IMG/VR virus record: IMGVR_UViG_3300033463_006083
Location: 32,001-96,000 of that record
Source of the DNA: a virus
Lineage: Duplodnaviria; Caudoviricetes
DNA: 64,000 nt
Strand: one strand, 5' to 3'
Position 1 is the stretch's first letter. Every line of letters begins with the position of its first letter. Shown here piece by piece: positions 10,402-58,018 of the stretch. The notes under the pieces were generated by a model that saw only the letters and a list, made by a program, of their open reading frames with translations, ran no database searches and had not been told where the DNA came from. Position numbers and translations under genes: made by a program.

Positions 10402-11322
10402 ATGAAATACTTGATTACCGGTAGCGGTTATTTAGCTAAGCATTTGATTTCCGCCCTATTAGAAAAACCTGAAATAGAAAAAATAAAAATATTTTCAAGA
10501 GCAGAGAAAGAACAATGGGAAGTAAAAACACATTTTAATAATAATCCTAAATTAGAATTTGTTATTGGTGATATTAGAGATTATCAAGCAATTAATGATG
10601 CTCTTGTCGGAATAGATTATTGTATTCATACTGGCGCAATTAAAAGAATTGAAGTTGCGGAAAAACAACCTATGGAAGCTATTAAAACGAATGTTCTTGG
10701 TAGTATGAATGTAATAAATGCGGCAATCGCTAATAAAGTTAAAAAACTTATACTTATATCAACCGATAAAGCGACCTCCGCAACAACTTGCTATGGAAGT
10801 ACAAAATTCTTAATGGAATGTATGGCATATGCAAATGAAAGCGATACGGATATTATCTGTACTCGTTATGGAAACGTATTTGGTTCAACGGGTAGTGTTG
10901 TTCCAATATTTGATAATTTAGTAAAACAAAATAAACCATTAACAGTTCGTAATGGCAATATGACGCGATTCTTTATGCCTGTTTCCGCATGTGTTGATAT
11001 TATTTTAGATGCTATTGACGCAGGTAAAAATGGAGAGTTGTGGGTATATAGAAGTAAGGCTTGTACAATTCAAGAACTAGCCAATGCGTTTAGTGATAAT
11101 CAAATTGTTATAGGAACTGAAAGTATAGAAAAAAATGATGAGGCTCTTGTTACAATTAATGAATTAAATCACAGTAAAAAATATTATAGTTATTATGTAA
11201 TTCATAAAGATTATATTAGTGATTATATATATACAGAACCTTTAACAAGTTATACTGCGGGAAGATTAACTCAAGAGGAAATTAAACAAATGCTTGATGA
11301 TTGGAGAAAAGATAATGTTTAG
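10402..11322 (+). CDS. UDP-N-acetylglucosamine 4,6-dehydratase-like SDR (PseB/CapD family)
   Basis: ITGSGYL, GDIRD, HTGAIK, KTNVLGS, ISTDKA, YGSTK, RYGNVFGSTGSVVP and MTRF. Confidence 0.9.
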   Translation: MKYLITGSGYLAKHLISALLEKPEIEKIKIFSRAEKEQWEVKTHFNNNPKLEFVIGDIRDYQAINDALVGIDYCIHTGAIKRIEVAEKQPMEAIKTNVLGSMNVINAAIANKVKKLILISTDKATSATTCYGSTKFLMECMAYANESDTDIICTRYGNVFGSTGSVVPIFDNLVKQNKPLTVRNGNMTRFFMPVSACVDIILDAIDAGKNGELWVYRSKACTIQELANAFSDNQIVIGTESIEKNDEALVTINELNHSKKYYSYYVIHKDYISDYIYTEPLTSYTAGRLTQEEIKQMLDDWRKDNV

Positions 11323-12511
11323 TATTGTCGTAATGTCTTGCGATAAATATAAATGTTTAACTCCCGCTTTTAAGCATTGTATTGACAAATATTATCCTAA
11401 TCATCCTGAGATATATTTTATATATGGACAAGGATGTTGAACAGAAAGATTGAGAAAGGGTTTAGAACAAATTCAAGATGAGTATGTTTTATTCTTTCTT
11501 GATGATATGTTAATTAGAGAGCCCGTTAATAAAGATTTAATTAATAATGCTTTTCAAGTTTTACAAAAAAATGATAAAATTGCTGTAATTAATTTTGAAC
11601 ATAATTATAGAGAAGCATTATCTTTCTCTAATTATTGATTAAAACAAAAACAAAATCAATTTTATTTACATAGTTGTCAACCAAGTCTATGAAATAGAAA
11701 AGCATTTATTAATAATTTACAAAAGAACGAAGATGCTTGAACTTGAGAACTAACAACAATAAATAATAATTATACTTATTTAATAAATAAAGATGCTAAT
11801 ATTATAAATATAGGTAAAAGAGACGACTTAAATTGAGGAATATCTCGCGGAACAATGTCAAAAGAGTTTCAAGATTTTTTAATAAAAGAAAATATTTATT
11901 CAGACGAGATTCAAGATTGCTTTTCACCATATAAAATTAGTATTATTACACCATATTATAGAACATTAAATTATATTCAAAAATTAGCAAATGTATTAGA
12001 ACCCCAACTAACAGATGATATAGAATGAATTGTTGTAGATGATGGATGTAATGAAAAAGAATTAGACAAATTAAAAGCAAAAGTTATTCACTTAGAAAAG
12101 AATAGTGGCGGCGGTAGCGTCCCTAGAAATATAGGACTCGATCACGCGCAAGGACAATATATATTATTTATAGATAGTGATGATTTAGTTACTTCAAATT
12201 ATATTTCTACTATTGTAAATAAAATTAATAATGAAGGACATACATTTAATTATTGTTATATAAGTTGAACTTCAGAATGAGGTGATGTCATTATTGAAAA
12301 TGAACCTCCTGCAACTAATACATCAATTTGAAATTGTATTTATAAAAAATCAGAAATAGGAAATGAAAGATTTAATCCAGAAATTATTATTGGTGAAGAT
12401 TACGATTTTAACTTAAGAGTGAGAAAAGGAACTCATGGCAATATAACAGATATTTTATATATTTATAACACTACCGTTCCAAACTCTTTAACTAAAGGAG
12501 GTTGAAAATAA
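11315..12511 (+). CDS. Two-domain glycosyltransferase (GT-A-like N domain + GT2), 398 aa (code 4)
   Basis: A continuous frame with 11 TGA and no TGG by manual reading. N domain: SCDKY, FFLDD, QPSL[W]. C domain: ISIITPYY, E[W]IVVDDG, RNIGL, FIDSDD, GEDYDF. Confidence 0.88.
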
Positions 12512-13650
12512 TGAAAGAAAAACAAAAAACAATTTATATATATCAATCTTATCTATGTCAAATAGGTGGGGTTGAAACATTCTTATATAACTGATGTTCT
12601 CAATTAAGAGATTATTATGATATAACAATTTTATATGAAAATGGAGACCCTCTACAAATTCAAAGATTAAATGATTTAGTTAAAATGGAAAAATATGATA
12701 AAAAGAAATCATATACTTGTGATATATTTATTAGGAATTCTGTATGGGGAACAGTTCCTGAAAATGTAACCTCTTTAGACAATAGATATATTGAAATGAG
12801 ACATGCGGATTATGAATGATTATTTAATCGTGGTGTTTTATTTGAACAATATCATCCATTTAAAAAGACTAACGAAGTTATAGGTTGTGCAGAACATGTA
12901 TCTCGTAAAAGTGATAAAGTATTGCATGATCATCCTATTACTATCCGCAATATATTAGGAGAAAAACATCAACGCAAATTAAGATTTATTAGCTGTATGC
13001 GTATAGACCCAGAAAAAGGATGGAAAAGAATGCTTCAAATGGGAGATATGATGCGCAAAGAAGGAATTGATTTTGAATGAGATATTTATACAAATAATCC
13101 TCAATCATCAGCACCAGAAGGCTTTAAGTTTCACAAACAAACATTTGAAATATGAGAACCATTAAGTAGAGCAGATTACTGTGTATTACTATCTAATGCT
13201 GAAGGATGCCCATATACAGTACTTGAAGCACTACAATATCAAGTTCCTTGTATTGTTACTGCAATTGATGGATGTAAAGAATTAATTAAAGATGGCGTTA
13301 ATGGATATATCGTTCCACTAGATATGAATTTTGATATAAAGAAAATATTAAAAATACCAAAATGTCCTGTTTATGATAATAAAGCAAAAGAAACTTGATT
13401 AAAATATTTAGGCGGAGCTGTTTATAAAAGAAGACCATCTAGAGATGAAAAATATATATTAGTAGAAGCATTATCAACTTATCAAAGATTAGCTTTAACT
13501 GATGGTGAATTAGGCTTTACACCAAAACCAGGACATCGTTGATGTGTTTCAGAAAAACGTTTACAAGTTTTATTAGGTCAAAATCCTAGAAAAGTTGCGT
13601 TTGTAAAACGTGTTGAAGATGAAGAAACTAAATACAAAGAAAGTATTTAG
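12511..13650 (+). CDS. GT4 (GT-B) glycosyltransferase, 379 aa (code 4)
   Basis: IGGVETF, RIDPEKG and EGCPYTVLEA (EX7E)...VPCIVT...ELIKDGVNGYIV. Several in-frame TGA codons. Confidence 0.9.
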
Positions 13651-19594: not shown

Positions 19595-19643
19595 TTATTA
19601 TGCATCTCCTTTTCTTCCAAAGATAAACTTTCTTTTACTATTG

Positions 19644-19719
19644 TATATTAAAAAAACTTTAAGTAAATAAATTATTTTAGACCAAAATAAAAAAGAGTGA
19701 TATTTGTTATATCACTCTT
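19644..19719 (-). promoter_or_regulatory. Terminator followed by phage-specific promoter motif
   Basis: agagtgata stem + TTTTTATTTT, then GGTCTAAA-N26-AATATA. Confidence 0.7.
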
Positions 19720-19724
19720 GTATT

Positions 19725-25824: not shown

Positions 25825-25859
25825 TACAATTACCTCCTTTTTCATTTTTTATCTATAAA

Positions 25860-25929
25860 TATATGATTTTTCTATTAAAATAATAAATTACTTTAGACCA
25901 AAATAAAAAAGAGAGCTATTTACTCTCTT
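25860..25929 (-). promoter_or_regulatory. Terminator followed by phage-specific promoter motif
   Basis: agagag stem + T-run, then GGTCTAAA-N26-CATATA. Confidence 0.7.
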
Positions 25930-30234: not shown

Positions 30235-32472
30235 TTATTCTGTAAAACTAATTTTAAATTGAAATTTATTTGTTGTAGAAGTTGAATTATTATAAATTCT
30301 ATATTTAATTTCAATAAAATGTTCTTCATCATCTAAATCTGTATAAACGACTTTTTGTACTGCGGTAGATGAAGCTGTTCCAGAAAAACTTTTTTTAACA
30401 TTTGTACTTTGTTCAGAACTATAATAATTTCGTACTAAAGTCTTATCAACATTAGATAAAATTCCAAAATTATTAGTAGAAGAAGTGGTTTGATTAATAC
30501 AACTAACAACTAATTTTCCTGTATTTGTTTTAAATTTTACTTTACAAAGAGCATAACTATAAGATTTTCCAGTATTACCACTTGTATAATATCCAGTATT
30601 TGAATTTAACGTAAAATCATAAGGCGCATAATACAAACCAGTTTTATCAATAGGCTCAACAACATACTCTCCATCTATATAAGGAACAGATGTAATTTCA
30701 ACATTTTGAGAAACTGTATTTTGTTCATCATCTTCTAAAGTAATATTTATTACTTCATTTCCCTCTCCAATACCTGAAAATTCAATAGAAATACAAGCAT
30801 TGGTTTTATCTAAAGTAGAATTAACTGTATAAATAGAAGTTTCTTCAGGAGACACACTTATAGAAAAATTATTAGGATGATCATCAACTTCAAAACCTCC
30901 ATATAAAATATTTAATGTTTTAGTTCTTGTATTCATAATAGTATAATTATTAATAATTTCTCATGTTAAATTTTGACATACTCTAATATTTGTTAAATCA
31001 TTACGACTATTTAAAAACATCTTTTTCGTAAGAACATTAGAAACATATATATTACAATTATTCATAAGCCCTTCAAAAGCATACTTACATTTTAATCAAT
31101 TGGTAGAATATATCGTATCAAACTGACAATTATTTAAATAAAGATTTTGTAAATTATTACAAAAACTAAAAGCATATCATAAATCAGCAACATTTTGAAC
31201 ATTTCAATTAGATAAATTTAATTCAGTCAAATTATCACAATAACGAAAAGCTCCATATAAATCAATTAAATTATTTGTTTGTCAATTAGAAACATTTAAC
31301 TCAGTTAAATGATTACAACCAGCAAAAGTCCAACTTAAATTTGTTAAATTACAAGTATTTCAATTTGAAACGTCTAAATTTGATAAATTATTACATCAAT
31401 AAAACATATATGCAATATTATTTAATCTAGATGTATTTCAATTTGAAACATCTAAAGTTGATAAATTATAACAGGAAAGAAAAGTATCTACCGCAGATTG
31501 TAATTTACTAGTATTTCAATTTGAAACATCCAAATCTCTTAAATTCTCACAATAGTAAAAAGCATAATTTAAATCAATTAAATTATTTGTTTGTCAATTA
31601 GAAACATTTAAAGTTGTTAAATTATTACAATAATAAAAAGTTCCATCTATTAATCTTAAATTACAAGTATTTCAATTAGAAACATCTAAATTTGTTAAAC
31701 CACTACAAGAAGCAAAAGTATTATATAAAACTTTACAATTAGAAATATTCCAATTAGATACATTTAAATTTGTAAAGCTTTGACAACCTTCAAATGTTCG
31801 ATTTATACTTTTTAAATTACTAGTATCTCAATTTGAAACGTCTAAATCTGCTAATACTCAACATCATAAAAAAGTATTATTCATATACTTTATGTTACTA
31901 ATATTCCAATTAGAAACATCTAAATTTGTTAAATTAGAACAACTATGAAAAACACTATTAAACATTTGTGTGCTTTGTAAATTTCAATTTGATATATTTA
32001 AATCTGTTATATTATAGCAATACATAAAAACATTATCTCAATTTTTAATTTTACTTACATTTCAATTTGAAATATCTACATTTCTAAAATTATTACAACC
32101 ATAAAAAATTCCATTAAGATTATGTATATTTTGTAAATTTCAATTGCAAAGATTTATATTATTTACCATATAGCAATTAGCAAACATATAATCTAAATTT
32201 GTAACATTTTTCATATCTCAATCTTGAAATTCAATATTATCTAACTGATAACAATAATAAAAAGCACGAGATAAAGAAGTATTTTTAGGAAAACCACTCT
32301 GAACATTAATATTTAAATTTGTAAGACCTGACATACCATTAAACATGAACTCTAATCCAGTAGAATGTTTTCAATTTAAATTTAAAATAATATTAGGACA
32401 ATTTCAATCAAATAATGCATGCTGATATGTATACCTAGCATCCATTAATAAATTATTATATTCATATAGCAT
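30235..32472 (-). CDS. BspA/DUF285-type LRR protein D with C-terminal beta-rich domains, 745 aa (code 4)
   Basis: GGAGG RBS and ATG at 32472. About 15 repeats in frame with track fragment 30235..30936. Confidence 0.85.
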
Positions 32473-33340: not shown

Positions 33341-33360
33341 ATTAATACCTCCTTTATTAA

Positions 33361-33438
33361 AATATGAAAAAATGCTCCTCTCTATTATTTATTTTAGCCC
33401 AAAATAAAAAAGAAAGCAAGTTGTTACACTTACTTTCT
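33361..33438 (-). promoter_or_regulatory. Terminator followed by phage-specific promoter motif
   Basis: agaaagtaag/cttgctttct stem + T-run, then GGGCTAAA-N26-CATATT. Confidence 0.7.
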
Positions 33439-33867
33439 AGGTATCTTCATAAAATAACAATAAACTTTTTCATCTATTGCATCTTCATCTTTTATAAAAT
33501 CTTTACTAAACTTAGCATACCATTCTACATTTTCTTCAAATAAATCATGATAATCATTATATGCTGAATTCATTACAATTCAAAAATCAACAGGTCTAAT
33601 TTCAGAATATCCATAAGAATTCCTAACACCTTCAGTGTCAGCTAATTCTCATTTTTTACCATATGGTTCCATACATTCAATAATTTCTCTTGCTTTATCC
33701 TCTGTTAAAACGCGGCCTTCCGCAATCTCATATAATTTTTCTTCAACTTTTTCTAATTCTCTATCTCCAACCATATCAATAATATATTCCATATAATCAG
33801 ACATTTCATCTATCTTTTTTGAATCACCAGAACTAATGATTTTATTTATATATTTTTTGTAGTCCAT
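33430..33867 (-). CDS. Conserved-looking hypothetical phage protein, 145 aa (code 4)
   Basis: The frame extends through TGA: GKK[W]EL...DF[W]IVMNSAYNDY...DFIKDEDA...KVYCYF. Confidence 0.75.
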
Positions 33868-34054
33868 CTTCAATTTTTTCCACCTTTCTTAATACTTCAT
33901 TTAACAATCTATTTTGATATTCTAATTTATGTTCCATATCAAAAATAATTGTATCTAGCTTTCTACTTTGAGATTCATTTTCTTCATACGAATGAAGTGA
34001 TATATATGACAATAATACAGTTAATAAATCTAATGCATCAAGATTTTCTTTCAT
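33842..34054 (-). CDS. Hypothetical coiled-coil protein
   Basis: ORF track. Translationally coupled to both neighbours. Confidence 0.65.
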   Translation of the reverse strand: MKENLDALDLLTVLLSYISLHSYEENESQSRKLDTIIFDMEHKLEYQNRLLNEVLRKVEKIEDGLQKIYK

Positions 34055-34410
34055 TATACACTTCCTGCAGGTTCTGTCAATTGTCCTCTAGGTTTTACAC
34101 AAGAGGTAATTACAAATTGACCATTTTCATAATTATCATTTCCGCTACCATACATAATAGGATATCTTACTCTTGTATTTAATTGATTTGCATACATAGT
34201 ATTTCCAGCTTTACATAAAACAGGAATATCTCCTACATTAGTTCTTATAAAAACAGGTAAATTCGCGGCCGCAGCTACATTATTGCATATAACGAGTCCA
34301 TAAGTTTCTGTATTAACTAGATTTTTTACTGCTCTATTAGGAATTAAAATTACTTCCTCCTCAGTAGTTTCTACAGTTGAGCAAAAAATTGTTTGACAGT
34401 AATTATTCAT
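34054..34410 (-). CDS. Hypothetical protein
   Basis: ORF track with AAGGAG RBS. Confidence 0.75.
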   Translation of the reverse strand: MNNYCQTIFCSTVETTEEEVILIPNRAVKNLVNTETYGLVICNNVAAAANLPVFIRTNVGDIPVLCKAGNTMYANQLNTRVRYPIMYGSGNDNYENGQFVITSCVKPRGQLTEPAGSV

Positions 34411-34431
34411 TTTTCAATCTCCTTTCTCAAC

Positions 34432-34460
34432 AAAAAATAGCGGAAGCACCTGGCCTCCGC
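34432..34460 (-). terminator. Intrinsic terminator
   Basis: gcggaggc...gcttccgc stem + TATTTTTT. A second small hairpin, cttgc-tttt-gcaag, lies just upstream. Confidence 0.7.
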
Positions 34461-34493
34461 ATGTCGACTTGCAAAAGCAAGGATTAAGTTAAA

Positions 34494-35063
34494 CTAGTAT
34501 AAAGAATTACATCCACAACCAGTATAGCAAGGTGGATTTAATACATATCTACCTTGTAAATTTAAAATTGTGTCTGTTGAGTTTTGTACAGCAGCAGTTA
34601 AAGTAGCTGTTTGATTTGCATTAGATAAAGCATCTCTTGTAGTTTGAAGTTTATCACTTAATTCTCTGATATAATTATCTTGAATCATTTGTCTTGTAGC
34701 AGCATTTTCAGTTGTTACTAAGTTTCCAATTGCGGCAATACTATTGCTAATTTGTTGTTGAATATCTTTCATAGCAACTAAATTACTATAATTGCTTGTT
34801 AAAACAGTATCAGTTAATGCGCATTGACCTTGAGCTAATCCTCTAATAGCATTATCTTGTGATTGAAAATATAAACTATTTTGAAGATCACTTTGTCCTA
34901 AAGCTGTTGCTCCATTATTCCAGAAACCACCATTTCCGCCAAATAATAGAATGAAAATAATAATTAATGAGAAAATTCCCATAGAACCACCAAATAATCC
35001 ATCGTTATTATCTCTTGTTAATGCTAATACATCTGCAGCTGACATTCCAGTATTATCGTTCAT
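34494..35063 (-). CDS. Gly-rich membrane-anchored coiled-coil protein of unknown function
   Basis: SAADVLAL...GGSMGIFSLIIIFILLFGGNGG TM helix, ENAATRQMIQ coiled coil and a CYTGCGC tail. Confidence 0.8.
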   Translation of the reverse strand: MNDNTGMSAADVLALTRDNNDGLFGGSMGIFSLIIIFILLFGGNGGFWNNGATALGQSDLQNSLYFQSQDNAIRGLAQGQCALTDTVLTSNYSNLVAMKDIQQQISNSIAAIGNLVTTENAATRQMIQDNYIRELSDKLQTTRDALSNANQTATLTAAVQNSTDTILNLQGRYVLNPPCYTGCGCNSLY

Positions 35064-35114
35064 CTTCTTCCTCCCTTTCCTTAAAATATTTATAATAAAA
35101 AGCTAGTCACGTGC

Positions 35115-35339
35115 CTATCTTCTATTACCATTAATTAAATTAATCATTTGCACAAATTGTTCTTTTGAAATTCCTTTTTCATTACACATTTGCGCAATAC
35201 TTTCCGCTTGTTTTTCTGTTGGTTGGCTTTTAATTGTATTAAAAAGTTGTAATTGTTGCGGATTTAGTAGACTTGTTAGCGCTTGCTGTGGTTGACTTGA
35301 TAGTAGCATCTGTGATAGTATGTTCTGCATGTTTATCAT
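35115..35339 (-). CDS. Small Gln/Met-rich helical protein
   Basis: GGAG RBS. Contains AQMCNEKGIS. Confidence 0.65.
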   Translation of the reverse strand: MINMQNILSQMLLSSQPQQALTSLLNPQQLQLFNTIKSQPTEKQAESIAQMCNEKGISKEQFVQMINLINGNRR

Positions 35340-35709
35340 CCAATCTCTCCTCCAATTCTTTTATTTTCTTTTCTAATTCTTCAATCTTAATATCTTTTTC
35401 ATCTTTAGGAACTATAATATTATAAACTTTAGATATATTTCCATCTACTTCCTTAATAGATATTTTAGAATTTGGTTCATCAATAAACAGAGTTTTTTTA
35501 GATACTATAATATTAGATATATCTTCATTAGGTTTAACATATCGTATATCCGTATCTGAATTACTACCTGTCGCATTAATAATATTTTGAACAGGCGGCT
35601 GCGTATTAATTCCCATATTTTGAGTATATTGAGCTATCATATTTTCAATATTCTCTTTTTGACGATACAATTGATTCATCAATCCCGCATTATTGTAATT
35701 ATAAGGCAT
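35239..35709 (-). CDS. Hypothetical protein
   Basis: AAGGAG RBS before ATG 35709. C-terminal coiled coil. Confidence 0.7.
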   Translation of the reverse strand: MPYNYNNAGLMNQLYRQKENIENMIAQYTQNMGINTQPPVQNIINATGSNSDTDIRYVKPNEDISNIIVSKKTLFIDEPNSKISIKEVDGNISKVYNIIVPKDEKDIKIEELEKKIKELEERLDDKHAEHTITDATIKSTTASANKSTKSATITTF

Positions 35710-35741
35710 ATTTAATCTCCTTTCCATTTTTTAAACAATAT

Positions 35742-35782
35742 AAAAAAGCCAGGCATTAGGAAAATAGACCTAATGCCTGGCT
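35742..35782 (-). terminator. Strong intrinsic terminator inside a 5' leader
   Basis: Perfect 14-bp stem agccaggcattagg/cctaatgcctggct followed by a T-run. Confidence 0.85.
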
Positions 35783-35856
35783 ATGATATTTCGTTATAAT
35801 TTATCTATCCATTTGTTTCAATCCATTTCCCTTTATCAGAGTTTTCTCTCTGACAT

Positions 35857-35898
35857 ATATATTTTATTTTTAATTTAAATAAATTATCAAATTTGTCC
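35857..35898 (-). promoter_or_regulatory. Phage-specific promoter motif
   Basis: GGACAAAT-N26/27-AATATA. Confidence 0.6.
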
Positions 35899-35905
35899 CA
35901 AAATT

Positions 35906-38900
35906 TTATGCATCTGTGCTATCGTTAGTAATATATAATGTATGAGTATTAGGATCTAGTCTAGTTCTAATACCACCTGTTACATTATAATCTGAATTAG
36001 GAACAGTCATTGTTGATTGTCCTGTTTCAATAGTAATATTACCATATCCTAATAACGAAGTACCATTAATTGTTTTAATATTTGTCCCACTAACTAATTC
36101 TGCTTGTTTTTCATCCCAATAAGTAATTTTTGCATCTGTAATATCATATGCTGGACTTGCAGTAAATACAGGATCAGTTTCAGAAGTAATAAATCCACTG
36201 TCATTTGTTAAATCACTTACTTTTGTTGGAATTGTAGGAAGATTAATTAAATCATTATAATCTCCTGTTGTGGCAACACTAGCTAAATCAGAACTTAATG
36301 TATAATAAGTTAAATTATTAACTGCATTTGTAATATATCCCGCATTATTAGTTAAATCACTCGTATCAGTAGGTAAATCAGTCATTCTAGCTAATCTAAC
36401 TGAGCCAGCATCTTTACCAGTTCCAGATGTAGAATCTACATATACATCTCCTTGATATCAAGCTTCTCCTGTTCAAGTTAAAGTATGTGCATTTGATCTT
36501 GCGTCATCCGCAGTACCATTACCAACTATATGAGCATATACATTTGACCCACTAACTATATTATATTTACCTTGAACATGTTGATTATTACTCAATGCTT
36601 CTGTATAATATCCTTCAGCATGTGAATAAATTCCACTTGCCACAGTATTATTTCCTTCAGCATGTGAATAATCTCTTGAAGCTATACTATTATTTCCTTC
36701 TGCATGTGAATAAGTTCCTGAAGCTGTACTACTATTTCCTTCTGCATGCGCACCCATTCCACTTGCAGTTGTATTATTTCCTTCAGCATGTGCTTGTGCT
36801 CCGCTAGCTTCAGTAGTTCAACCTTCTACATGAGAATAATTACCAGAAGCTTCTCCTGATGCTCCTTCTGCATGTGCAGCAGTTCCAGATGCAAGAGATG
36901 AAAAACCTTCTGCATGAGAATAATCACCAGAAGCTTTTGTTGAAACTCCCTCTGCAACAGCACCATTTCCAATAGTATAATTTGTTCCTTCTGTAGAAGA
37001 ACCAATTGTTCTAACACTTCGTGGTTGACTGCCATTAATCCAATTACTATTTGCTAATGATGGATTTGAACCAGCTGTTACATGTCCTTTATTGTCAACA
37101 GTAACAGATGTATATGTTCCAGCAACAACTCCTGATGTAGCATGAGATAATGTTCTAGTACCACTAGTTGTAATTGCTAAATTATCATCAATAACAATTG
37201 GACCAGTTGCATTTAAAGTAATACTTGTAACAGTACCACTTGGTTCGTCACCAGATGGAATCAATATCCAGCCAGTTCCATTACTAATAAACATATCTCC
37301 TACTTTTGCATTTTGACTTGCATAAGTACCATCTGTAATAACTTTATATGTAAAACCACTATTTGCAGCTGCAGCCGCAGGTAAACTAGTTATCGTTCCT
37401 CCTGACCCTAAAGAACCTTTAAATACCATAAAACCAGGAAGTGCGGCAATAGCTGAATCTACATAAGCTGTAGTTGCAACTTTAGTTGAGTTATCTCCAC
37501 TTTGTTGAGTCGTAGCCGTAACACCATTTGTAATAGCACCAGTTAATATTGAAGCTGGTACTGAAGTAATATTAGCTTGACCTGATGTAGCAACACTAGT
37601 ACCATTAACCGCTACTTCTGTAATAGTACCTGTATTAGTTGTATATCCTTGATTAGTTGCGGCAGTAACTCTACCATAACTATCAACTGTAATTCCTTGA
37701 TAGGTTCCTGCAGTAACACCTGAAGCATCTAAAGCTATCGTTCCTGTCGTCGTGATATCTCCACCCGTAAGACCAGTTCCCGCAGTTACTTTAGTTACGG
37801 TTCCTGTATTAGTTGTATATCCACTATCATTTGTAAATGCACTTATATTAGTTGGAATATCGCTTGTTTTAGCAAGTTTAGAAGAACCAGAAGTTTGACT
37901 TGTTCCTCCTACATAAACATCACCTTTATATCATGCATTACCATTCCAATCAACAGTGTGAGCATTTGAACGAGCTGATGTTCCTGTTCCATTACCAATT
38001 ATATGTGCATATGTATTATTACTATCTAATATATTAAATTTACCTTCTACATGTTGATTTTGTCCAGTTGCTGTTGTGTAACGACCTTCAGCATGTGAAG
38101 TTTGACCACTTGCTGTAGTATAATATCCTTCGGCATGAGATCCATTAGTTCCACTTGCTGTAGTATAATACCCTTCAGCATGTGCTTGTGTTCCGCTTGC
38201 GGTTGTTGTATTACCTTCGGCATGAGACGCACTACCAGAAGCCTTAGTTCCAGTACCTTCCGCAAAAGCATAAGTTCCAACTGAATAACTTGAACCATCT
38301 GCCATAGCATAAATTGTTCTTAAACTACCTGAGGCATTTGCATTTACTAAATTACTATTTACTTCGCTTGTTAAAAATCCACTATCATTAGTTAAATCAC
38401 TAACTTTAGTAGGAACAGTAATATTAGCAACTGCATCTGTATTTGAATTTGCTGTAAAATCAACTATTTTAGTTCCATTTTTTTGAATTGTTAATTTTGC
38501 ATCATTAACAACAGGAATTGTAGGTTTATTTGTTAAATCTTCATAGTTTCCACTAAAATCACTTTTAGCATTTCACGCAGTTCTTTCTGCGGCAGTTATA
38601 AATTTATGAGTTTTATTAGTATCATCAACTAAATCACTGCTTAATTTATTTGAACTTGTTATTTCTGACTGTAAACCACTAACTAATCCACCAACAGGAA
38701 TATCAATTGTATTACCATTTTGTAAGGTTAAAATAATCTTTTTATTTGTTGAATCATATTGACCACTGACAACAACAGATTCAAGAGGTAAATCAATAGT
38801 ACTTGAATTTAACACTGTACCTGCACTATTTTTTAATTTTGCAGTAATCTTATAATCTGTAGTATTTACAGATAGTTCTATTTTATTACCTGTAGCAGTT

Positions 38901-39406
38901 TTTAATTCATAATTAGTTAAATTATTAACATCTTTTGTAATAAAACTAGAAACATCTGGTATGTCGCTAATATTTGCCTTACCATTTCAATAATTAATAT
39001 TTGTATTTGTGATGGTTGCAGCAGGACTTCCTCAATATCCAGAATCCACACGTTCATAATGTGCATTACCATTAGGATCGTTTGCTGCGGTTACAAAGTA
39101 ATAAAGTTGATATTTTTTGTCATTGGCTGTCCCAGAAGAAAGTTTAAGCGCATATAAAACATCATCTTTCCCATTCGCAACAGAAGGTAAACTATTAACA
39201 AACAATAATGCCATACCATTTCTTAAAGTAATATCATCAGGAGGTGTAATCATATCCATACTATTAACTATTGTTCATGAAAGAACGCCTTCTTGTGAAA
39301 TAGAAGGAACAAAAATATCACCTTTATCACCTTTCGCATAAAGGTCTACCTCAAGATAATTTTTCCCCTCAATAGGATTACTCATAACAGAATTATTATC
39401 ATCCAT
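35906..39406 (-). CDS. Tail fibre/adhesin with YadA-head-like repeats, 1166 aa (code 4)
   Basis: Six fragments in one frame. Two blocks of 14-aa ASGxxSHAEGxxTx repeats, PTKxSDLTNDSGF repeats, and GNG...RSNAHT.DW.G neck motifs. Confidence 0.85.
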
Positions 39407-39460
39407 GCTATAAAACCTCCTTTTATATTTTTATATCATTTTTCTTTTTCTCACTATAAT

Positions 39461-39533
39461 AATATTTAAAAATACATAAGATAAATAAATTATTTTAGAC
39501 CAAAATAAAAAAGACAATGTTTCCATCGTCTTT
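39461..39533 (-). promoter_or_regulatory. Terminator followed by phage-specific promoter motif
   Basis: aaagacgatg/cattgtcttt stem + T-run, then GGTCTAAA-N26-AAATAT. Confidence 0.7.
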
Positions 39534-43022: not shown

Positions 43023-44816
43023 CTATGAATCTATTAATACAAATAAATCTCCATCTTTTCCTAGTGAATCGCTAGGTTCAGTTGAACCACTATAAACAGT
43101 TGGAATTTCATCAATTGTAATTAATTTTTTACTACCTGCATCTTTATTCGTTCCAGATGCAGATTTTACATATATATCTCCTTGATACCATGCATTTCCA
43201 TTTCAATCAACCGTATGAAGATTTGATGGTATTTGTGAAGTTCCATTACCTATGATATGAGCATATAAATTTGAAGAGTCTTCAATATTATATTTACCTT
43301 CAACATGTTGATTACTTCCTTTAGCAGTCGTATAATATCCTTCTGCATGAGAATTATCCCCTTCAGCTTTAGTGCCTTTACCTTCTGCAATTGAATTTTT
43401 CCCAATAGTATAAGAAGCATTTTCTTCTAAAGAATATATATTTCTTAAACTTCCTTCAGAATTTCCATTTCTCATATTTAATATATTAATTTTATTTTTA
43501 ATAACTTCTTGAACAACACCTTTTAAATTTAGTGGGTATTGAATAGTAATAGGAATTTCTAATTGAGTTCCAATAAATTTTTCAGTTCCTTCTGTTCCTA
43601 TTATATAATTAGTATTTTTATTTAAAATTTCATCTTTTGTATATTCTTGCGGATCTTCATCATAATAATAAACATATTGATTATCATAAATATATGACCA
43701 AGTAGAATGAGTTTTTATTGTTGGCAATTGACTAACATTAGCTCTTTTGATACGTTTATACATTTTTCCTTCTTTATAATTAATTTCATCCGCATAATTA
43801 GGAACTGCTAATAAACCATTAGGAAAAATTATTGTATTATTATTATCTTTTAAAGTATATTCTATATCAAAAACAAAATTATCTTCAATATATTCTTCAT
43901 ATTTTGTATCTTCATCTCCAGCTTCAGTTAAATGACAACATAATTTATCAATACTGTTTGTTGGTACTACACATAAATATCCATTAGCAGGTGGTGTATA
44001 ATATTGTAAAAAAGTTGAATCACTTAATGTTTGTCCTCCTGGAATTGCAGTTGTTGTAGGAGAAAGTAATGTTAATCCACGAGAAGATGTTGTTGGAGCA
44101 GTAGCATTTCAAGCAACTCTATAAATTGAATTCTCATTTGCATCATAAATTGTATAAGTATTATTACCTAAACATTCAAATCATATAATACCATACGTAT
44201 TTGTTGAAGCATCTGGTTTACCCGATGTAACATTCCCACTTGCATTAATATAATAATTTTGAATTCTTTTAGTTGTATCATTTTTATTAAATTGATTAAA
44301 TTTTACACTTGTTAATTTTGTAGGTTTTGCAATAGTAATAGTACCAATATATTCAGGAATAAAATGTACTATAATACTATCTCCATTAGAAGCAACTCCT
44401 GTAATAGTAATTCCAAATGTTGAAGCCATATTTACAATTGTTCCGTTACGCTTTCAAGAACCTTGATCATAAATAAAAGTATAGTCTCCTTCATTATTTT
44501 GTACTGCACTTCTAAAAGTTGCAACATTAATTGTTGCTGTAATTGTAGTAGATTCAATATCCATTGTACATTTTTCTTCAATAGTTGTACAATTAACACT
44601 ACCTCTAATACTATTTATAGTAGCTTCTCCATTTAAAACATTTTCACTACCACCAGTTTTTCTATAATTAAATTTAGTATCACTTACAATTTTACTACTA
44701 GAAACTAAATTATTTGCAAATCCAACTGTAGTAGTAGGATATACACCAACAGGATCTATTGCAGGATAAATCTCATTCTGCTTTGCTTCATCACTATAAA
44801 AATGAATTTCTGCCAT
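43023..44816 (-). CDS. Tail fibre-related protein with short YadA-like repeat, 597 aa (code 4)
   Basis: Three fragments in one frame. Contains an SHAEG repeat and a C-terminal PSDSLGKDGDLF motif. Confidence 0.75.
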
Positions 44817-45980: not shown

Positions 45981-48857
45981 CTAAGCATCTTGTCCATTAT
46001 TTGTTATATATAAAGTATTTGTATTATCATCAAGTCTAACTTTTAATACCCCAGCAACAGTAGAACTTGCATTTTCAACTGTTACATTAGATACTGCTGT
46101 TTGTACAAAAGCTGTTGTAGCTATTTTTGTAGAGTTATCAGTAGATGTTTGAGTTGTTGCAGTAACACTACTTGGAATAGCTCCACTTAATTGTGTTGCA
46201 TCAAGAGTAGAGCTTGATGTTAATGGAGTAATTGTATTACTTCCAAGAGTAATTGTTCCATTTTCTATTTTTGCATCAGTAATACCATAACCACTCAATG
46301 TAGTCGGATTTGTTCCAGCTGTGACATGTCCTTTTGCATCTACCGTTACACTATTATATGTTCCTGCAGTTACACCTGAAGTATCATGTTTTAAAGTTAA
46401 TACACCACTACTTCAAGTACCTGTAATACCATCACTACCTACAACTTTTGTATAGTTTTCACGAACTGTAACTGTCCAACCTGCAGTTTTATCTAGTTTA
46501 TATACATATGTTTGATCACCTTGTTGATTATTACTGTGTGAACTTACGCTTCTATAATATTGAAATTCTACATTTGTTGGATTTGTTTCATCATTAACAT
46601 ATGCCATAAATGCTAATCTTGTTTGGCTTCCAGTTGCTGGGTTACTATTACTACTTGCTCTAGTATAAACAACATGTTTTGCAGTATAAGCTGTAAGAAA
46701 ATCGTTTCAAGTAGAACTTCCATATTTTAAAATTGTCATACCTGACATAAAATTAGCATCATTTGTTAATTCACTTGTTTTAGTAGGTACTGTAACACTA
46801 TTACTACCTAAAGTAATTGTTTGACTTGAAATACTTGCATCTGTAATTCCATAACCTGCCAATGTTGTTGGATTTGTTCCAGCTGTAACATGACCTGTAT
46901 CATTAACAGTTACACTTGTATAAGTACCCGCAGTTACACCAGAAGTCGCATGTGAAATTGTGCGGCTGCCGCTTGTAGTAATTGCAGCACTACTATCTAT
47001 TGCAATAGGACCTGTAGCATTTAATGTAACACTTGTTACTGTACCTGAAGGCTCATCACCTGAAGGAATTAATTCCCAAGTATTTGCATTAGAAGTTTTT
47101 GTTAAACATATAAATGTATCCCCAACTTTTGCAGTCTTAGATGCATATGTGCCATCAGTAATTACTTTATAAGTATCTCCAATATTTGCACTACCATCAA
47201 CAGGTAAGGCAGTAATTGTACCTCCAGTACCTAAACTACCTTTAAATACCATTGGTTCTGGTAGATTATCAATAGCAGTATCAACATATGCAGTTGTAGC
47301 TATCTTTGTAGAATTATCTCCTTGGGTTTGTGTAGTTGCGGTAACCGCACTTGGAATAGCTCCTGTTAAAATACTTGCAGGTACAGATGTAATATTTGCT
47401 ACTCCAGAAGTAGCTATCGATGTTCCATTTACTGAAACACCTGTAATAGCATCTCCTTCTTTTAATAATTTTTTACTACCACTATCTTTATTAGTTCCAC
47501 TAGTAGAACCTACATATACATCTCCAGCATATCAAGCATTTCCACTCCAATCTACAGTAGCAGCATTTGATCTTGCATTGTCAGCAGTACCATTTCCAAT
47601 AATATCTAAATATGTTTCATTAGATTCAGAAATGTTATATCTACCTTGAACATGTTGATAATCACTTGCTGCAATAGTGTATTCTCCTTCAGCATGAGAT
47701 TTTTGCCCTGATGCAACAGTTCCACTACCTTCAGCATGAGCTGCATAGTCAGAAGCTGTAGTATAATAACCTTCTGCATGACCATATTTTCCTGATGCTG
47801 TACTAGAACGACCCTCAGCATGAGCATATTCATTTGATGCAGTAGTTGAACGACCTTCCGCATGAGAATAAGCACCAGATGCTTCAGTATTATATCCTTC
47901 TGTATGAGAAGCTTGTCCTTGTGCAATTGTACTATAACCCTCTGCATGAGCAGCCCATCCTTTGGCTATTGTATTATATCCTTCAGCATGGCTGCCAAAA
48001 TTAGCAGCAAGAGTGTCATTTCCTTCCGCATGAGCACCTCTTGCAGAAGCTACATTTCCTCTTTTGAAAAAATAAATTGTATTTCCAACAGAAAAGACAC
48101 TCATATCAGTATCTGATGATAAAGTAATTTCATCATCTTCTTGATTTATAGTAGTAACAAGACGATTATATCCATAATCTGCAGTACTAGTTAAACTTAC
48201 ATAGCATCCAATTAATGTAAGATCTGGTTCTGTAGTAAGACCTAAAACATTAGAATTCTTTGAAGAAATAATTGCCGAACCAAAAGAAGTGTTAGTATCT
48301 CCATATCCTTCAGCATGAGCTCCTTCTCCACACAAAGCAATTGAATAGCTACCCTCAGCATGTGTAGCATAATCTAAAGCTTTTGTAGAATTTCCTTCTG
48401 CATGAGAATGACTTCCATCTGCTCGTGTACTTGCTCCTTCAGCATGTCCATTTGCTCCATTAGCCTGAGAATAATATCCCTCTGCATGAGATCTTGCCCC
48501 AATAGCTTTAGCACCATATCCTTCTGCATGAGTTGCTGTATTTCCTGCTGTAGTTTGAATTCCTTCCGCATGAGCACCATATCCTTCTGCTTTTGAATCT
48601 TGTCCTTCAACAAAAGCATAATCTCCAATAGTGTAATTATCATTTTCTACAAGAGTACCTATTCCTCTTAAACTTCCTGTAGCTGAGCCATTAACTAAAT
48701 TATCATTAATTTCAGTTCCAGCAATTTCAATTCTATTTGAAGAATCTTTATCCAAATAAATCTTTTTAGTATCAGTAGTTACAATAAATTGTCCTTCTGT
48801 AACAGGGAGGCTACTCAATTGATTATCTTCAACTTTATACGGTTTAAAAATTGCCAT
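45981..48857 (-). CDS. Tail fibre/adhesin with YadA-head-like repeats, 958 aa (code 4)
   Basis: Four fragments in one frame. About 18 HAEG repeats, GVTAGTY.SVTV...GHVTAGTNPTTL.GYGITDA fibre repeats, and an N-terminal EGQFIVTTDTKKIYLD attachment-like motif. Confidence 0.85.
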
Positions 48858-50848: not shown

Positions 50849-51703
50849 TTATAAATATTTTGTTCAATTATTTGGCAAATAAACTGTTTTACCATCATAT
50901 AAAACTTTATCCCAAGTATATCCATCTGATTTACCTACTGCTTTACCAAGTAGTTCACATTTAGTTCCCTTTGGAATAACTTTATATTTAGGATTTTTAA
51001 ATCCATATCCATTTAATCTACACCATACTCCTGTAGTTAATTGAATATATTTTTTAGTTTTTCCGCTTATAATTTCATTAACTCTATTTTGAACTTCACG
51101 ATAATTATATCCTGCGGCTTCTAATCTTTTCTTTCTGTCTTCACCATTTCCCCATTTACCAGCAATAACTTCTTGAGCTATCTCATCAATGGTTTTTTTA
51201 CTAGGATCTTGATCACTATAATCAATATATTTTAATTTTCCATGATAAGTCCAACGTAAATTTTTAACGCCTTTATAATATCTATAACCATTTTTATCAA
51301 TATCACTAATTATAGCTTTTCCAGTTCCCCATCCAGTTGTATCTTCAAATACTTTACCGTTACCTAAATAAATTCCTGTATGATTATATTTAGTTCCTCT
51401 CATACATAAATATTCTCCAGGTACTAAATTACTAAAGTTGGTGCTTACATTGGTGCATGTTTCATAAACGGAATTACAAGTAAAATCAGGTACACCATTT
51501 GACTTATAAACAGTTCCACCTCTAAATAAATTTTTATCAGCTTTAAAACCCCATAAAATAGATTTTACAGATACAACACAATCAAATTGCCATTTACCAT
51601 TTTTTAATGTTGATCATCCAGACCCACTATGGTATACATTTGGAACATCATTAACAAGCCATTTTAATTTGTCAATAAATTGTTTACTTTTAAATACTGC
51701 CAT
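50849..51703 (-). CDS. Endolysin: NlpC/P60-like peptidase + CW_7 (Cpl-7) + SH3-like domain, 284 aa (code 4)
   Basis: FDCVVSVK (catalytic Cys), HTGIYLGNG, and IAQEVIAGKWGNGEDRKKRLEAAGYNYREVQNRVN. TGA at codon 30 (51614-51616) and near the C-terminus. Confidence 0.88.
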
Positions 51704-51723: not shown

Positions 51724-51814
51724 TATATTTGAAAAATTGCATATTTTACTTGTTACTATTTGTCCTTGCTTAAAAATTTATACAAAATAAAAAAGACTAG
51801 TTATAAACTAGTCT
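51724..51814 (-). promoter_or_regulatory. Terminator followed by phage-specific promoter motif
   Basis: agactagtt/aactagtct stem + T-run, then GGACAAAT-N26-CAAATATA. Confidence 0.65.
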
Positions 51815-52631
51815 ATTTATTCATTACTTTAATAGCATCAATAGTTTCACCTATATTACCAGCATAACCATTTTTACTATCTTTAGTGTTATATCCAGTT
51901 ACATATCCTAACCAACGATTAGAATTTTTCAAATGAACTTGATATTTATATTTGTCTGTTTTTATAGCAACAGCATCAACATCGTTAGGTAAATTACCCG
52001 CATAATCGCTAAATGATTTTACTGCAGGCAACCATTTTTTCTTAACTTTATCATGTACTTTATATTCAGTTACATCTTCAATGCGGAAACCGCTTATTCC
52101 ATGACCTAAATTTCCTGCATAATCATTTGCATTAATTTTTACTTTAGGTAACCATCTGTTCGCATTATTATCATATGTTTGATAATATTTTACATTTGCG
52201 CCAGGTAAATCCGCATCTAAATATGGTTGAGGATTGATTCTTGTATCATTTGAAGTTCTTACTTCAAAATGTAAATGAGCTCCAAATGAATATCCTGTAT
52301 TTCCCATATAACCAATTTGTTGTCCCTTAGATACATATTGTCCTTTTTTTACATATACTTTTTCCATATGTGCATAAAGAGTATAATATCCATTAGGATG
52401 TTTAATTTTTACGCAGTTACCATAACTTGCATTTCCAGTTGCTTTTGGATTGTTTTTATATCCTGTTTGACAAAAAACTACAGTTCCTTCAGTATGAGCT
52501 TTAATTGGGCAAGTTGCACAAGCCCATTTAACTAAATCAATACCTCTATGACTTGTAGCTGAATAATATTGTGTAATACGATAATCTGTACAATCTAAAA
52601 CTCTACATCCTGTTAGTTTAGTTACTGCCAT
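51813..52631 (-). CDS. Endolysin, M23 peptidase with C-terminal Trp-containing wall-binding repeats
   Basis: HRGID, YGN, YAHM, GNTG.S.GAHLHFE and INP motifs. Three WLxxV...YAG repeats. Confidence 0.92.
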   Translation of the reverse strand: MAVTKLTGCRVLDCTDYRITQYYSATSHRGIDLVKWACATCPIKAHTEGTVVFCQTGYKNNPKATGNASYGNCVKIKHPNGYYTLYAHMEKVYVKKGQYVSKGQQIGYMGNTGYSFGAHLHFEVRTSNDTRINPQPYLDADLPGANVKYYQTYDNNANRWLPKVKINANDYAGNLGHGISGFRIEDVTEYKVHDKVKKKWLPAVKSFSDYAGNLPNDVDAVAIKTDKYKYQVHLKNSNRWLGYVTGYNTKDSKNGYAGNIGETIDAIKVMNK

Positions 52632-57914: not shown

Positions 57915-57954
57915 TTTAAGGCCACACTCCTTTTTTCTCTAATTTCCTTTAAAA

Positions 57955-58018
57955 TATATTAAGATTTATTAAATATTATTAATTATCTTAGACCAAATAA
58001 AAAAGAAGATAGCTTTCA

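Follow-up and report, generated by a model that had tools for sequence, protein, structure and literature searches.

In the window analysed here, a 64,000-nt stretch (positions 32,001 to 96,000) of the Caudoviricetes record IMGVR_UViG_3300033463_006083, which is a single virus record of 119,593 bp and about 80% complete, the minus strand carries an undescribed leader RNA that stands out by a covarying helix joining an upstream sequence box to the loop of an intrinsic terminator. The element is real and conserved in related gut phages, is present in one copy per genome, and lies between a late-promoter motif and a cassette of six small late genes. We propose, with a probability of roughly 0.55 and on the strength of comparative sequence analysis and predicted folds, that it is a conserved cis-acting leader of about 110-130 nt in which the helix between the upstream box (box A) and the terminator apex competes with the terminator in an attenuator-like manner. 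The initial annotation had also described this locus as an attenuator, but one that senses the genetic code through a TGA/TGG leader peptide; the leader, the strong terminator and an alternative pairing stand, while control by a translated TGA/TGG peptide does not.

Organisation and conservation of the leader

The elements of the leader (minus strand, window coordinates) follow one another in the order and at the positions initially annotated, exact to the base. A variant of the late-promoter motif (TTTTGGGACAAATTTGATAATTTATTTA, 35903-35876) with a GATAAT -10-like hexamer and TTGATA, and with a probable role as promoter, is followed by the box ATATATG (35860-35854; ATATATA(C/T)ATG in relatives), which may be either the -10/start region or an early transcribed element, and by a hairpin, P1 (tcagag/agaaaa/ctctga, 35853-35836), with a 6-bp stem and a 6-nt loop. 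The sequence AAAGGG (35834-35829) then stands directly upstream of the region of a short open reading frame (ORF), the mini-ORF ATG GAT TGA AAC AAA TGG ATA GAT AAA TTA TAA (35826-35794), which reads MD* under code 11 and MDWNKWIDKL* under code 4. Box A (AAAGGGAAATGGATTGAA, 35817..35834) includes the ATG (35826) and TGA (35820-35818) of this mini-ORF, and its paired part (AAAGGGAAATGGATT, 35832-35820) is complementary to the terminator apex; a second, diverged copy of the box (AAATGGATAGA, 35804..35814) is found in the window and in the related locus L022 only. A spacer of 11 nt (35793-35783) separates the mini-ORF from the terminator (35782-35742), which has a perfect 14-bp stem (35782-35769/35760-35747) with 8 GC pairs, an 8-nt loop (35768-35761), a T run to 35742 and a fold energy of -26.1 kcal/mol, that is, the GC-rich stem, short loop and 3' U tract of an intrinsic terminator. 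Its apex (GGTCTATTTTCCT, 35758..35770) comprises the loop together with 2 nt from the top of the 5' strand and 3 nt from the top of the 3' strand. The ribosome binding site (RBS) of the cassette, GGAG (35720-35717), follows with 7-nt spacing to the cassette start codon at 35709.

Relatives were retrieved with the 189-aa cassette protein, giving 16 IMG/VR loci and 46 metagenome loci, several of which are the same contigs. The first cassette gene is present in 56 loci (window included), corresponding to 38 distinct upstream regions, five of which are cut by contig ends. No terminator stands upstream of the cassette in L020, L021 and L061, and in L021 the promoter motif abuts the cassette RBS with no leader between; L060 has a weak hairpin only and no box, and was left out of later counts. 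In the remaining 29 distinct leaders the promoter motif, the box and a strong terminator (-18 to -30 kcal/mol) occur in identical order: promoter motif, ATATATA(C/T)ATG, usually a variable hairpin, box A, a spacer of 0-48 nt, terminator and RBS, the terminator lying 20-40 nt from the cassette RBS with no promoter-sized gap between. The position of P1 is taken by a hairpin of differing sequence and length in most relatives, and is without a hairpin in the L011 group (L011, L014, L034, L047) and the L018 group (L018, L019, L056). We note that L020, a more distant relative, has in place of the leader a GC-rich and apparently structured stretch (2140-2337) that immediately precedes the cassette RBS.

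The covariance model R1, built from these leaders, gave one match in the 119.6-kb genome itself (E 4e-17; next matches E 0.48 and 0.91). Of 44 related loci searched, 28 gave a single match on the sense strand, in every case just before the cassette. As 27 of these loci belong to the 28 used for training, their matches are expected by construction; the other, L035, is a new, partial copy, and the training row L013 was missed. When 22 leaders are aligned on GGATTG, the box A consensus is aaa.GgAAATGGATTGAA, with a near-invariant TTGAA beyond the paired part in 20 of the 22. An upstream copy of the box with TGAAT occurs in 13 of these 22 leaders, against 1.2 expected from shuffles, and whereas the window has two box copies, L013 has three copies of GGATTGA. 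It is the nucleotide box that is conserved, and not a peptide. No second match to box A was found in the phage's own genome, and no close relative by DNA in INPHARED.

A terminator and a short reading frame in AT-rich DNA need not be anything special, and the locus could be the plain terminator of the upstream tail-fibre gene, with the mini-ORF and the box there by chance. Terminators followed by promoters do punctuate the whole late region. When the 71-nt leader was shuffled, an ATG with an in-frame TGA before any TAA or TAG arose in 3366 of 20,000 sequences (17%), and together with a nearby Shine-Dalgarno (SD)-like 4-mer in 567; among 71-nt tiles of the late region the frame was present in 76 of 619, and with an SD-like 4-mer in 11. 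As such, the mini-ORF alone is weak evidence and not beyond chance. Recurrence in 29 distinct related leaders, in contrast, places the terminator and the box far outside what chance would give. The box, an apex pairing that is independent of distance and the order of promoter before terminator are all found in leaders that have differing upstream genes and in some cases a separate upstream terminator (for example L011), and the other late units have their promoter after the terminator. An origin of the whole arrangement by chance is therefore very improbable.

A helix between box A and the terminator apex

The terminator stem itself covaries, with compensatory change at 15 of 15 pairs and 93.8% of cells paired in a MAFFT alignment of the 29 leaders. 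The terminator loops are also conserved, and carry AATTCATTTCC or variants of it, the complement of GGAAATG(G/A)ATT. In the window, AGGGAAATGGATT pairs with GGTCTATTTTCCT through 13 pairs, 4 of them G-U, and the duplex energy is -14.9 kcal/mol compared with a shuffled-leader mean of -7.7. Without recourse to any alignment, box A is the best duplex partner of the 16-nt apex within the 110-nt leader in 28 of the 29 cases, L013 using another of its box copies, and the energies of the box A:apex duplex range from -8.4 to -14.9 kcal/mol.

Changes on the two sides of the helix match each other. In L058, where GGAAAAGG and CCTTTTCC pair, A replaces the T of the ATG and T replaces the facing loop A. 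In L046 the box and the loop each have a 2-nt insertion, and these match to give 13 pairs; in L016 and L051 an extra A in the box goes with an extra T in the loop. L018, L019 and L056 have a differing box, GGAATGAAAAATG, with a correspondingly differing loop, CATTTTTAATTCC, and the four loop changes shared by the window and L022 are all wobble-compatible. In a sequence-only MAFFT alignment, the nine box:apex pairs tested are standard pairs in 91.7% of cells and three of them change on both sides, whereas control structures in which the 3' partners were slid by 1-3 columns had 37-49% of cells paired over the whole tested structure; the count of nine pairs is an underestimate, MAFFT placing the insertion variants (L046, the L018 group and L013) out of register. 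Because of this misplacement an alignment-free test of cognate pairing was added. With one representative from each of 10 classes, the mean cognate energy was -11.6 kcal/mol, against -9.35 +/- 0.58 when boxes and apices were permuted, and 5 of 20,000 permutations reached the observed value.

Folding suggests that the helix and the terminator are alternatives. When transcripts were folded to a point just after the apex, the box:apex helix was in the minimum free energy (MFE) structure of 20 of the 29 leaders, that of the window included, whereas in full-length folds the terminator was in the MFE structure of all 29 and the helix in that of none (both counted by eye). Only 0-3 nt separate the box from the terminator stem in L011, L014, L034 and L047, and by this geometry the full terminator stem and an 11-bp helix to its own loop could not coexist. 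It is because the truncated and full-length folds differ, and because of this 0-3-nt geometry, that we take the helix to compete with the terminator. The locus thus has the two features of an attenuator, a terminator before the first structural gene and a mutually exclusive alternative pairing, the pairing being taken from the folds and the covariation.

Possible control of termination

A mechanism can be outlined on this basis. The leader RNA would be made from a dedicated variant of the late promoter and would end at the strong terminator before the conserved late cassette. A helix of 11-13 bp may join box A (35832-35820) to the apex (35770-35758), and since both of these segments are made ahead of the terminator's 3' strand, the helix could form first, hold the apex and oppose closure of the hairpin. 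RNA polymerase would then stop at 35742-35746 or continue into the cassette according to whether box A is free to pair, and a factor occupying box A would favour termination. Such a factor would most likely be a protein recognising the repeated (A/G)UG(G/A)AU(U)GA units, and less likely a 30S subunit; in either case the ATG and TGA of the mini-ORF would merely be part of box A. Two or three (A/G)TG(G/A)AT(T)GA-like units are present near the competing strand, and may be suggestive of a binding site for a protein. The cassette and its neighbouring proteins belong to no informative family that would suggest a cognate RNA-binding regulator.

Several features weigh against this proposal. The helix captures the loop and only 2-4 nt of the stem, leaving the lower 10-12 bp of the terminator free, whereas classical antiterminators sequester the 5' strand of the terminator, and the shortened terminator might still work. 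The terminator is also far more stable than the helix (-22 to -30 compared with -8 to -15 kcal/mol). For the apices of L013 and L039, other leaders are a better fit than the cognate one, and the near-invariant TTGAA beyond the helix is not explained by pairing. The apex furthermore resembles ATAATTTATTT of the promoter, such that a reading of the inverted repeat at the level of DNA is possible. The only RNA run found, the metatranscriptomic run X1 (6% of sampled words), has contigs of a 90-97% relative that cover 33431-35535 of the cassette and none over the leader; consisting of contigs only, with no ends, strand or expression level, it is uninformative on the leader.

The terminated leader could instead be the product itself, a phage small RNA of about 110-130 nt in which the helix is part of the fold, or in which the loop or box A pairs in trans, with the cassette expressed by leak-through. 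The small RNA of about 110 nt that the initial annotation had offered as an alternative to its attenuator is a fair description of a promoter-proximal leader with a terminator; as a stand-alone product it is a rival only. The leader does have its own promoter motif and strong terminator, conserved blocks within an otherwise variable RNA and a single copy per genome, and pairing of terminator loops with targets has been reported for bacterial small RNAs (PMC11979758). However, all 29 leaders stand directly before the same cassette at a distance of 20-40 nt from its RBS, and this fixed position would be left unexplained. In L021 the promoter motif directly adjoins the gene, an arrangement that speaks for a promoter serving the cassette, and with no second match to box A in the genome there is no obvious target beyond the apex. 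We consider a free-standing small RNA unlikely.

If, as we favour, the box A:apex helix controls the terminator, the attenuator would be of a design in which the terminator loop is captured instead of the 5' strand, and one late cassette would be subject to further control in addition to that by the late promoter. Phages in which TGA changes from stop to tryptophan (Trp) late in infection are known from metagenomes only, and to our knowledge nothing has been established about how their late transcription is ordered. The locus is a compact and testable regulatory RNA, with 29 natural variants that have compensatory mutations built in and with no Rfam family.

The probable promoter region and a possible default block

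The phage promoter motif recognised in the initial annotation is borne out by similar motifs elsewhere. TTTTGG(T/G)CTAAAATAATTTATT stands after terminators and before five other late transcription units on the minus strand (19724, 25915, 33429, 39532 and 58018). The terminator-promoter units at these places (19595-19724, 25846-25915, 33341-33429, 39407-39532 and 57915-58018) are repeats of one design, a hairpin with a T run, then TTTTGG(T/G)CTAAAATAATTTATT, then an ATATA-rich box about 20 nt on, and to judge by their sequence look like the late promoter of this phage. The motif at the leader locus is a variant of the late motif (GGGACAAATTTGATAAT), with a GGGACAA core that is intergenic only here in the phage's own genome, and relatives keep it at the leader locus as TTGGGACAAAG-TTTATAAT. 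In relatives the distance from the TATAAT-like hexamer to the ATATATA-type box is a constant 18-20 nt, and similar boxes follow the other late promoter motifs. At the leader locus alone the promoter comes before the terminator, in contrast to the other late units, where it comes after. A sigma-70-family gene (Sigma70_r2, E 7.6e-20; a 297-aa open frame, match at record positions 111435-111635, outside the window; locus L071) encodes a candidate reader of the late promoter motif.

This architecture of promoter, short leader, strong terminator and late genes recalls phage lambda, in which the late promoter is followed by the 6S RNA, the strong intrinsic terminator tR', Q antitermination and then the late genes. 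Here too, a short leader ends at a strong terminator right after a late promoter, and the promoter DNA has a motif specific to the locus. The terminator could be a default block, relieved by a processive antitermination factor that is recruited at the promoter, where the GGGACAAAG motif adjoins the -10-like hexamer; the ATATATA box would serve as a pause site and the helix would be secondary. The restriction of the GGGACAAAG variant to this one locus of the genome and its conservation there in relatives, the -10-like box at a fixed 18-20 nt downstream and the phage-encoded sigma-70-family protein would all be consistent with this. No gene of the Q or NusG families was detected, with no match to the Q families PF03589 and PF06530 at E <= 0.1 and none to NusG in the phage's own record, although in a record about 80% complete their absence is unproven. 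Lambda has no upstream box pairing to the terminator loop, and the covarying box:apex helix would be left unexplained by a default block. The comparison with lambda is not a test of the model, and we hold a default block of this kind to be quite unlikely, preferring the competing helix.

Several smaller observations concern the promoter region. The string (G/A)ATAATT in many terminator loops (L006, L007, L009, L017, L027) is also found in the -10-like part of the promoter (GATAATTTATTT, window 35876-35887), and the L007 terminator loop is an exact repeat of ATAATTTATTT; coincidence in AT-rich DNA and function are both possible. An upstream complement of the box beside the -10-like hexamer is strong in L011, L014, L034 and L047, and is probably at or before the transcription start. 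An internal promoter at the TTGAAA of the box was considered and rejected, its -10-like partners being unconserved (by eye); it would in any case still be upstream of the terminator.

The mini-ORF and the genetic code

The genetic code context on which the initial annotation built holds up, with TGA read as Trp in the late genes and a tRNA(UCA) present. Code 4 (TGA = Trp) fuses fragments into long minus-strand late genes, for example one of 1373 aa with 51 TGA, while the plus-strand early and middle genes have almost no in-frame TGA. The record has 24 tRNA genes, among them those with anticodons UCA and CUA, and the tRNA(UCA) is of Trp type, with discriminator G before CCA. In the code-sensing model, a ribosome on the mini-ORF would leave at codon 3 when TGA is a stop, allowing the terminator to form, and would run on and mask the terminator when TGA is Trp. 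The model may be revised to a two-codon minigene, AUG GAU UGA, lying in the antiterminator strand: decoding of the UGA would change how long box A is occupied, and hence whether helix or terminator forms, and transcription of the cassette would be coupled to the code switch. If such a minigene sensor were true, the late cassette would be timed to the code switch, and relatives without the frame would have lost or replaced the sensor.

Some observations are in line with such sensing. Beyond the late-gene recoding and the encoded Trp-type tRNA(UCA), the box reads ATG GAT followed by TGA or TGG in 20 of the 29 leaders: TGA in 18 (L066 read by eye) and TGG, which would be synonymous under code 4, in two (L059, L063). 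The standard-code lineage of L018, L019 and L056 has no in-frame TGA, its box reading ATG AAA AAT. The conserved TTGAA has no explanation by pairing, and the code-4 frame ends at most 3 nt from the stem, inside it or beyond it in 9 of the 17 ATG-GAT-TGA leaders scored.

The conservation expected of a regulatory leader peptide is nevertheless lacking. Conservation of the mini-ORF and its TGA had been put forward as a check on the peptide, and the in-frame ATG-GAT-TGA occurs in only the 18 leaders named, the frame and the position of its stop being unconserved. L011, L014, L034 and L047 come from recoded phages, yet their box reads ATG AAT GAA; in L046 the frame is shifted (ATG TGG ATT, followed by GAA); and L058 has AAG and no ATG, with a compensating change in the loop. 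Conversely, the standard-code relative L007 keeps the ATG GAT TGA box intact, with 0 in-frame TGA against 64 TGG in the real ORFs of its whole 26-kb contig, the only ORF with TGA there being an antisense shadow. When recoding was judged by in-frame TGA versus TGG in long flanking ORFs, which placed 26 leaders and gave no call for three, a TGA box was present in 16 and absent from 6 of the recoded leaders, and present in one (L007) and absent from three of the standard-code leaders (Fisher p = 0.10), a weak association in which the three standard-code cases without TGA are one lineage.

The remainder of the frame behaves in the same way. After the TGA the sequence is free, some code-4 peptides being as short as MDWK and MDWI and others continuing across the terminator, and the second Trp codon (TGG) is found only in the window and its 98% relative L022. 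Spacing was a further check, and the code-4 stop lies from +39 to -78 nt from the stem, like the stops of two control frames; with a box-to-stem spacer of 0-48 nt, no stall or stop position is fixed relative to the helices. In the window, the code-4 stop lies 11 nt from the stem, which going by known footprints would be the limit of ribosome coverage. Nor are a conserved start and a usable RBS found. The initial annotation had itself cautioned that the SD spacing was short, rightly so, the SD-like GGG being 2 nt from the ATG in the window, with a core spacing of 1-3 nt, compared with 4-15 nt in 33 of the 35 genes with an SD core (47 genes examined). Both the ATG and the SD-like bases also take part in the box:apex helix. 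Sensing of the code by the translated mini-ORF is improbable in our view, and improbable to the same degree in its two-codon form. The mini-ORF looks incidental, a by-product of the RNA pairing site, and the locus serves as a caution that an attractive code-sensing peptide may be the shadow of such a site.

Relationship to known leader RNAs

The leader-peptide attenuators of the trp, his and phe type resemble this locus in having a promoter-proximal leader, a terminator before the first structural gene and competing pairing, and in a short frame with a Trp-type codon, which most copies have here. They differ in that here the frame is unconserved, the SD spacing is 1-3 nt, the helix takes the loop and top of the terminator rather than its 5' strand, and nothing places a stalled ribosome relative to the helices. 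Attenuation of the TRAP, PyrR and LicT/SacY type likewise involves a leader with a terminator and a competing helix, with repeated short units, two or three of them here, near the competing strand. Unlike the TRAP type, this leader has 2-3 repeats and not 9-11 triplets, no RAT-like hairpin, no Rfam match and no predicted binding protein. Ordinary intrinsic terminators share the GC-rich 14-bp stem, the 8-nt loop, the T run and covariation of the stem, and differ from this one in that its loop is conserved and complementary to an upstream box.

UGA-sensing sites are known from the autoregulation of RF2 in prfB and from the tnaC leader, and depend on a frame that is translated and has a conserved context. 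In principle the in-frame UGA of a short upstream frame could likewise indicate how UGA is decoded here; in contrast to prfB and tnaC, translation is doubtful here, and the UGA is absent from 11 of the 29 leaders and present in a standard-code relative. Sensing of tRNA(UCA) in the manner of a T-box was rejected: the UGGA of the box would need discriminator U and the phage tRNA(UCA) has G, there is no UGG in the box of the L011 and L018 groups, and no Stem I-like domain is present.

The Rfam search that had been suggested as a check gave no family for the leader. No family reached the gathering score in 8 related loci, and within window positions 34000-38000 no match was better than E 0.05, all being far below gathering; the sub-threshold matches over the leader (35678-35808) were SSRC10 (E 0.12), mir-4788 (E 1.6) and preQ1-II (E 8). 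None of the titles and abstracts surveyed describes a code-sensing attenuator, which leaves absence in print unproven, and the accessible part of a preprint on phage stop-codon recoding (10.1101/2021.08.26.457843) makes no mention of attenuators, leaders or terminators.

The cassette and its genomic surroundings

The cassette (33430..35709) comprises six small genes at 35709-35239, 35339-35115, 35063-34494, 34410-34054, 34054-33842 and 33873-33430. Its 189-aa membrane-anchored protein is 80-98% identical among most relatives and has no homologue in INPHARED phages. PHROGs and Pfam give no function for the cassette, the sole Pfam match being DUF7841 in the last gene, and ESM Atlas matches are to unnamed viral clusters only. 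The cassette is probably not an endolysin module, because two lysis-type enzymes, endolysin/amidase-like and M23-type metallo-endopeptidase (minus strand, 50849-51703 and 51813-52631), are encoded far from it. The first cassette gene (35239-35709) and the 74-aa ORF that follows (35115-35339) overlap by about 100 nt in different frames of the minus strand; in tblastn searches of many relatives only residues 1-101 of gene 1 align in one piece, and gene 1 may be shorter or contain a frameshift. Between the 189-aa gene and the next, the cassette has another GC-rich hairpin with a T run that resembles a terminator (34440-34460, minus strand).

Upstream of the leader, the minus-strand tail-fibre-like gene at 39406..35906 encodes 1166 aa under code 4 with 8 in-frame TGA, and its stop is at 35906. 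It is one of three large tail-fibre-like paralogues on the minus strand (35906-39406, 43023-44816 and 45981-48857), which have SHAEG-type repeats (a weak YadA-head match, phrog_25468) and near-identical C-terminal segments. Two plus-strand genes at the end of the otherwise TGA-free block are recoded (window 11294-13650), one of 405 aa with 11 TGA and one of 382 aa with 6 TGA.

Outside the window, the tRNA(UCA) gene (record 98731-98826) is 96 nt long, and is called as selenocysteine (SeC) by ARAGORN; it seemingly has two anticodon-like stem-loops (UCA and CCA) before a normal T arm. A normal 74-nt tRNA-Trp(CCA) lies 126 nt downstream of it. The tRNA with anticodon CUA, a TAG suppressor (record 100468-100544), is present although TAG ends many early and late ORFs.

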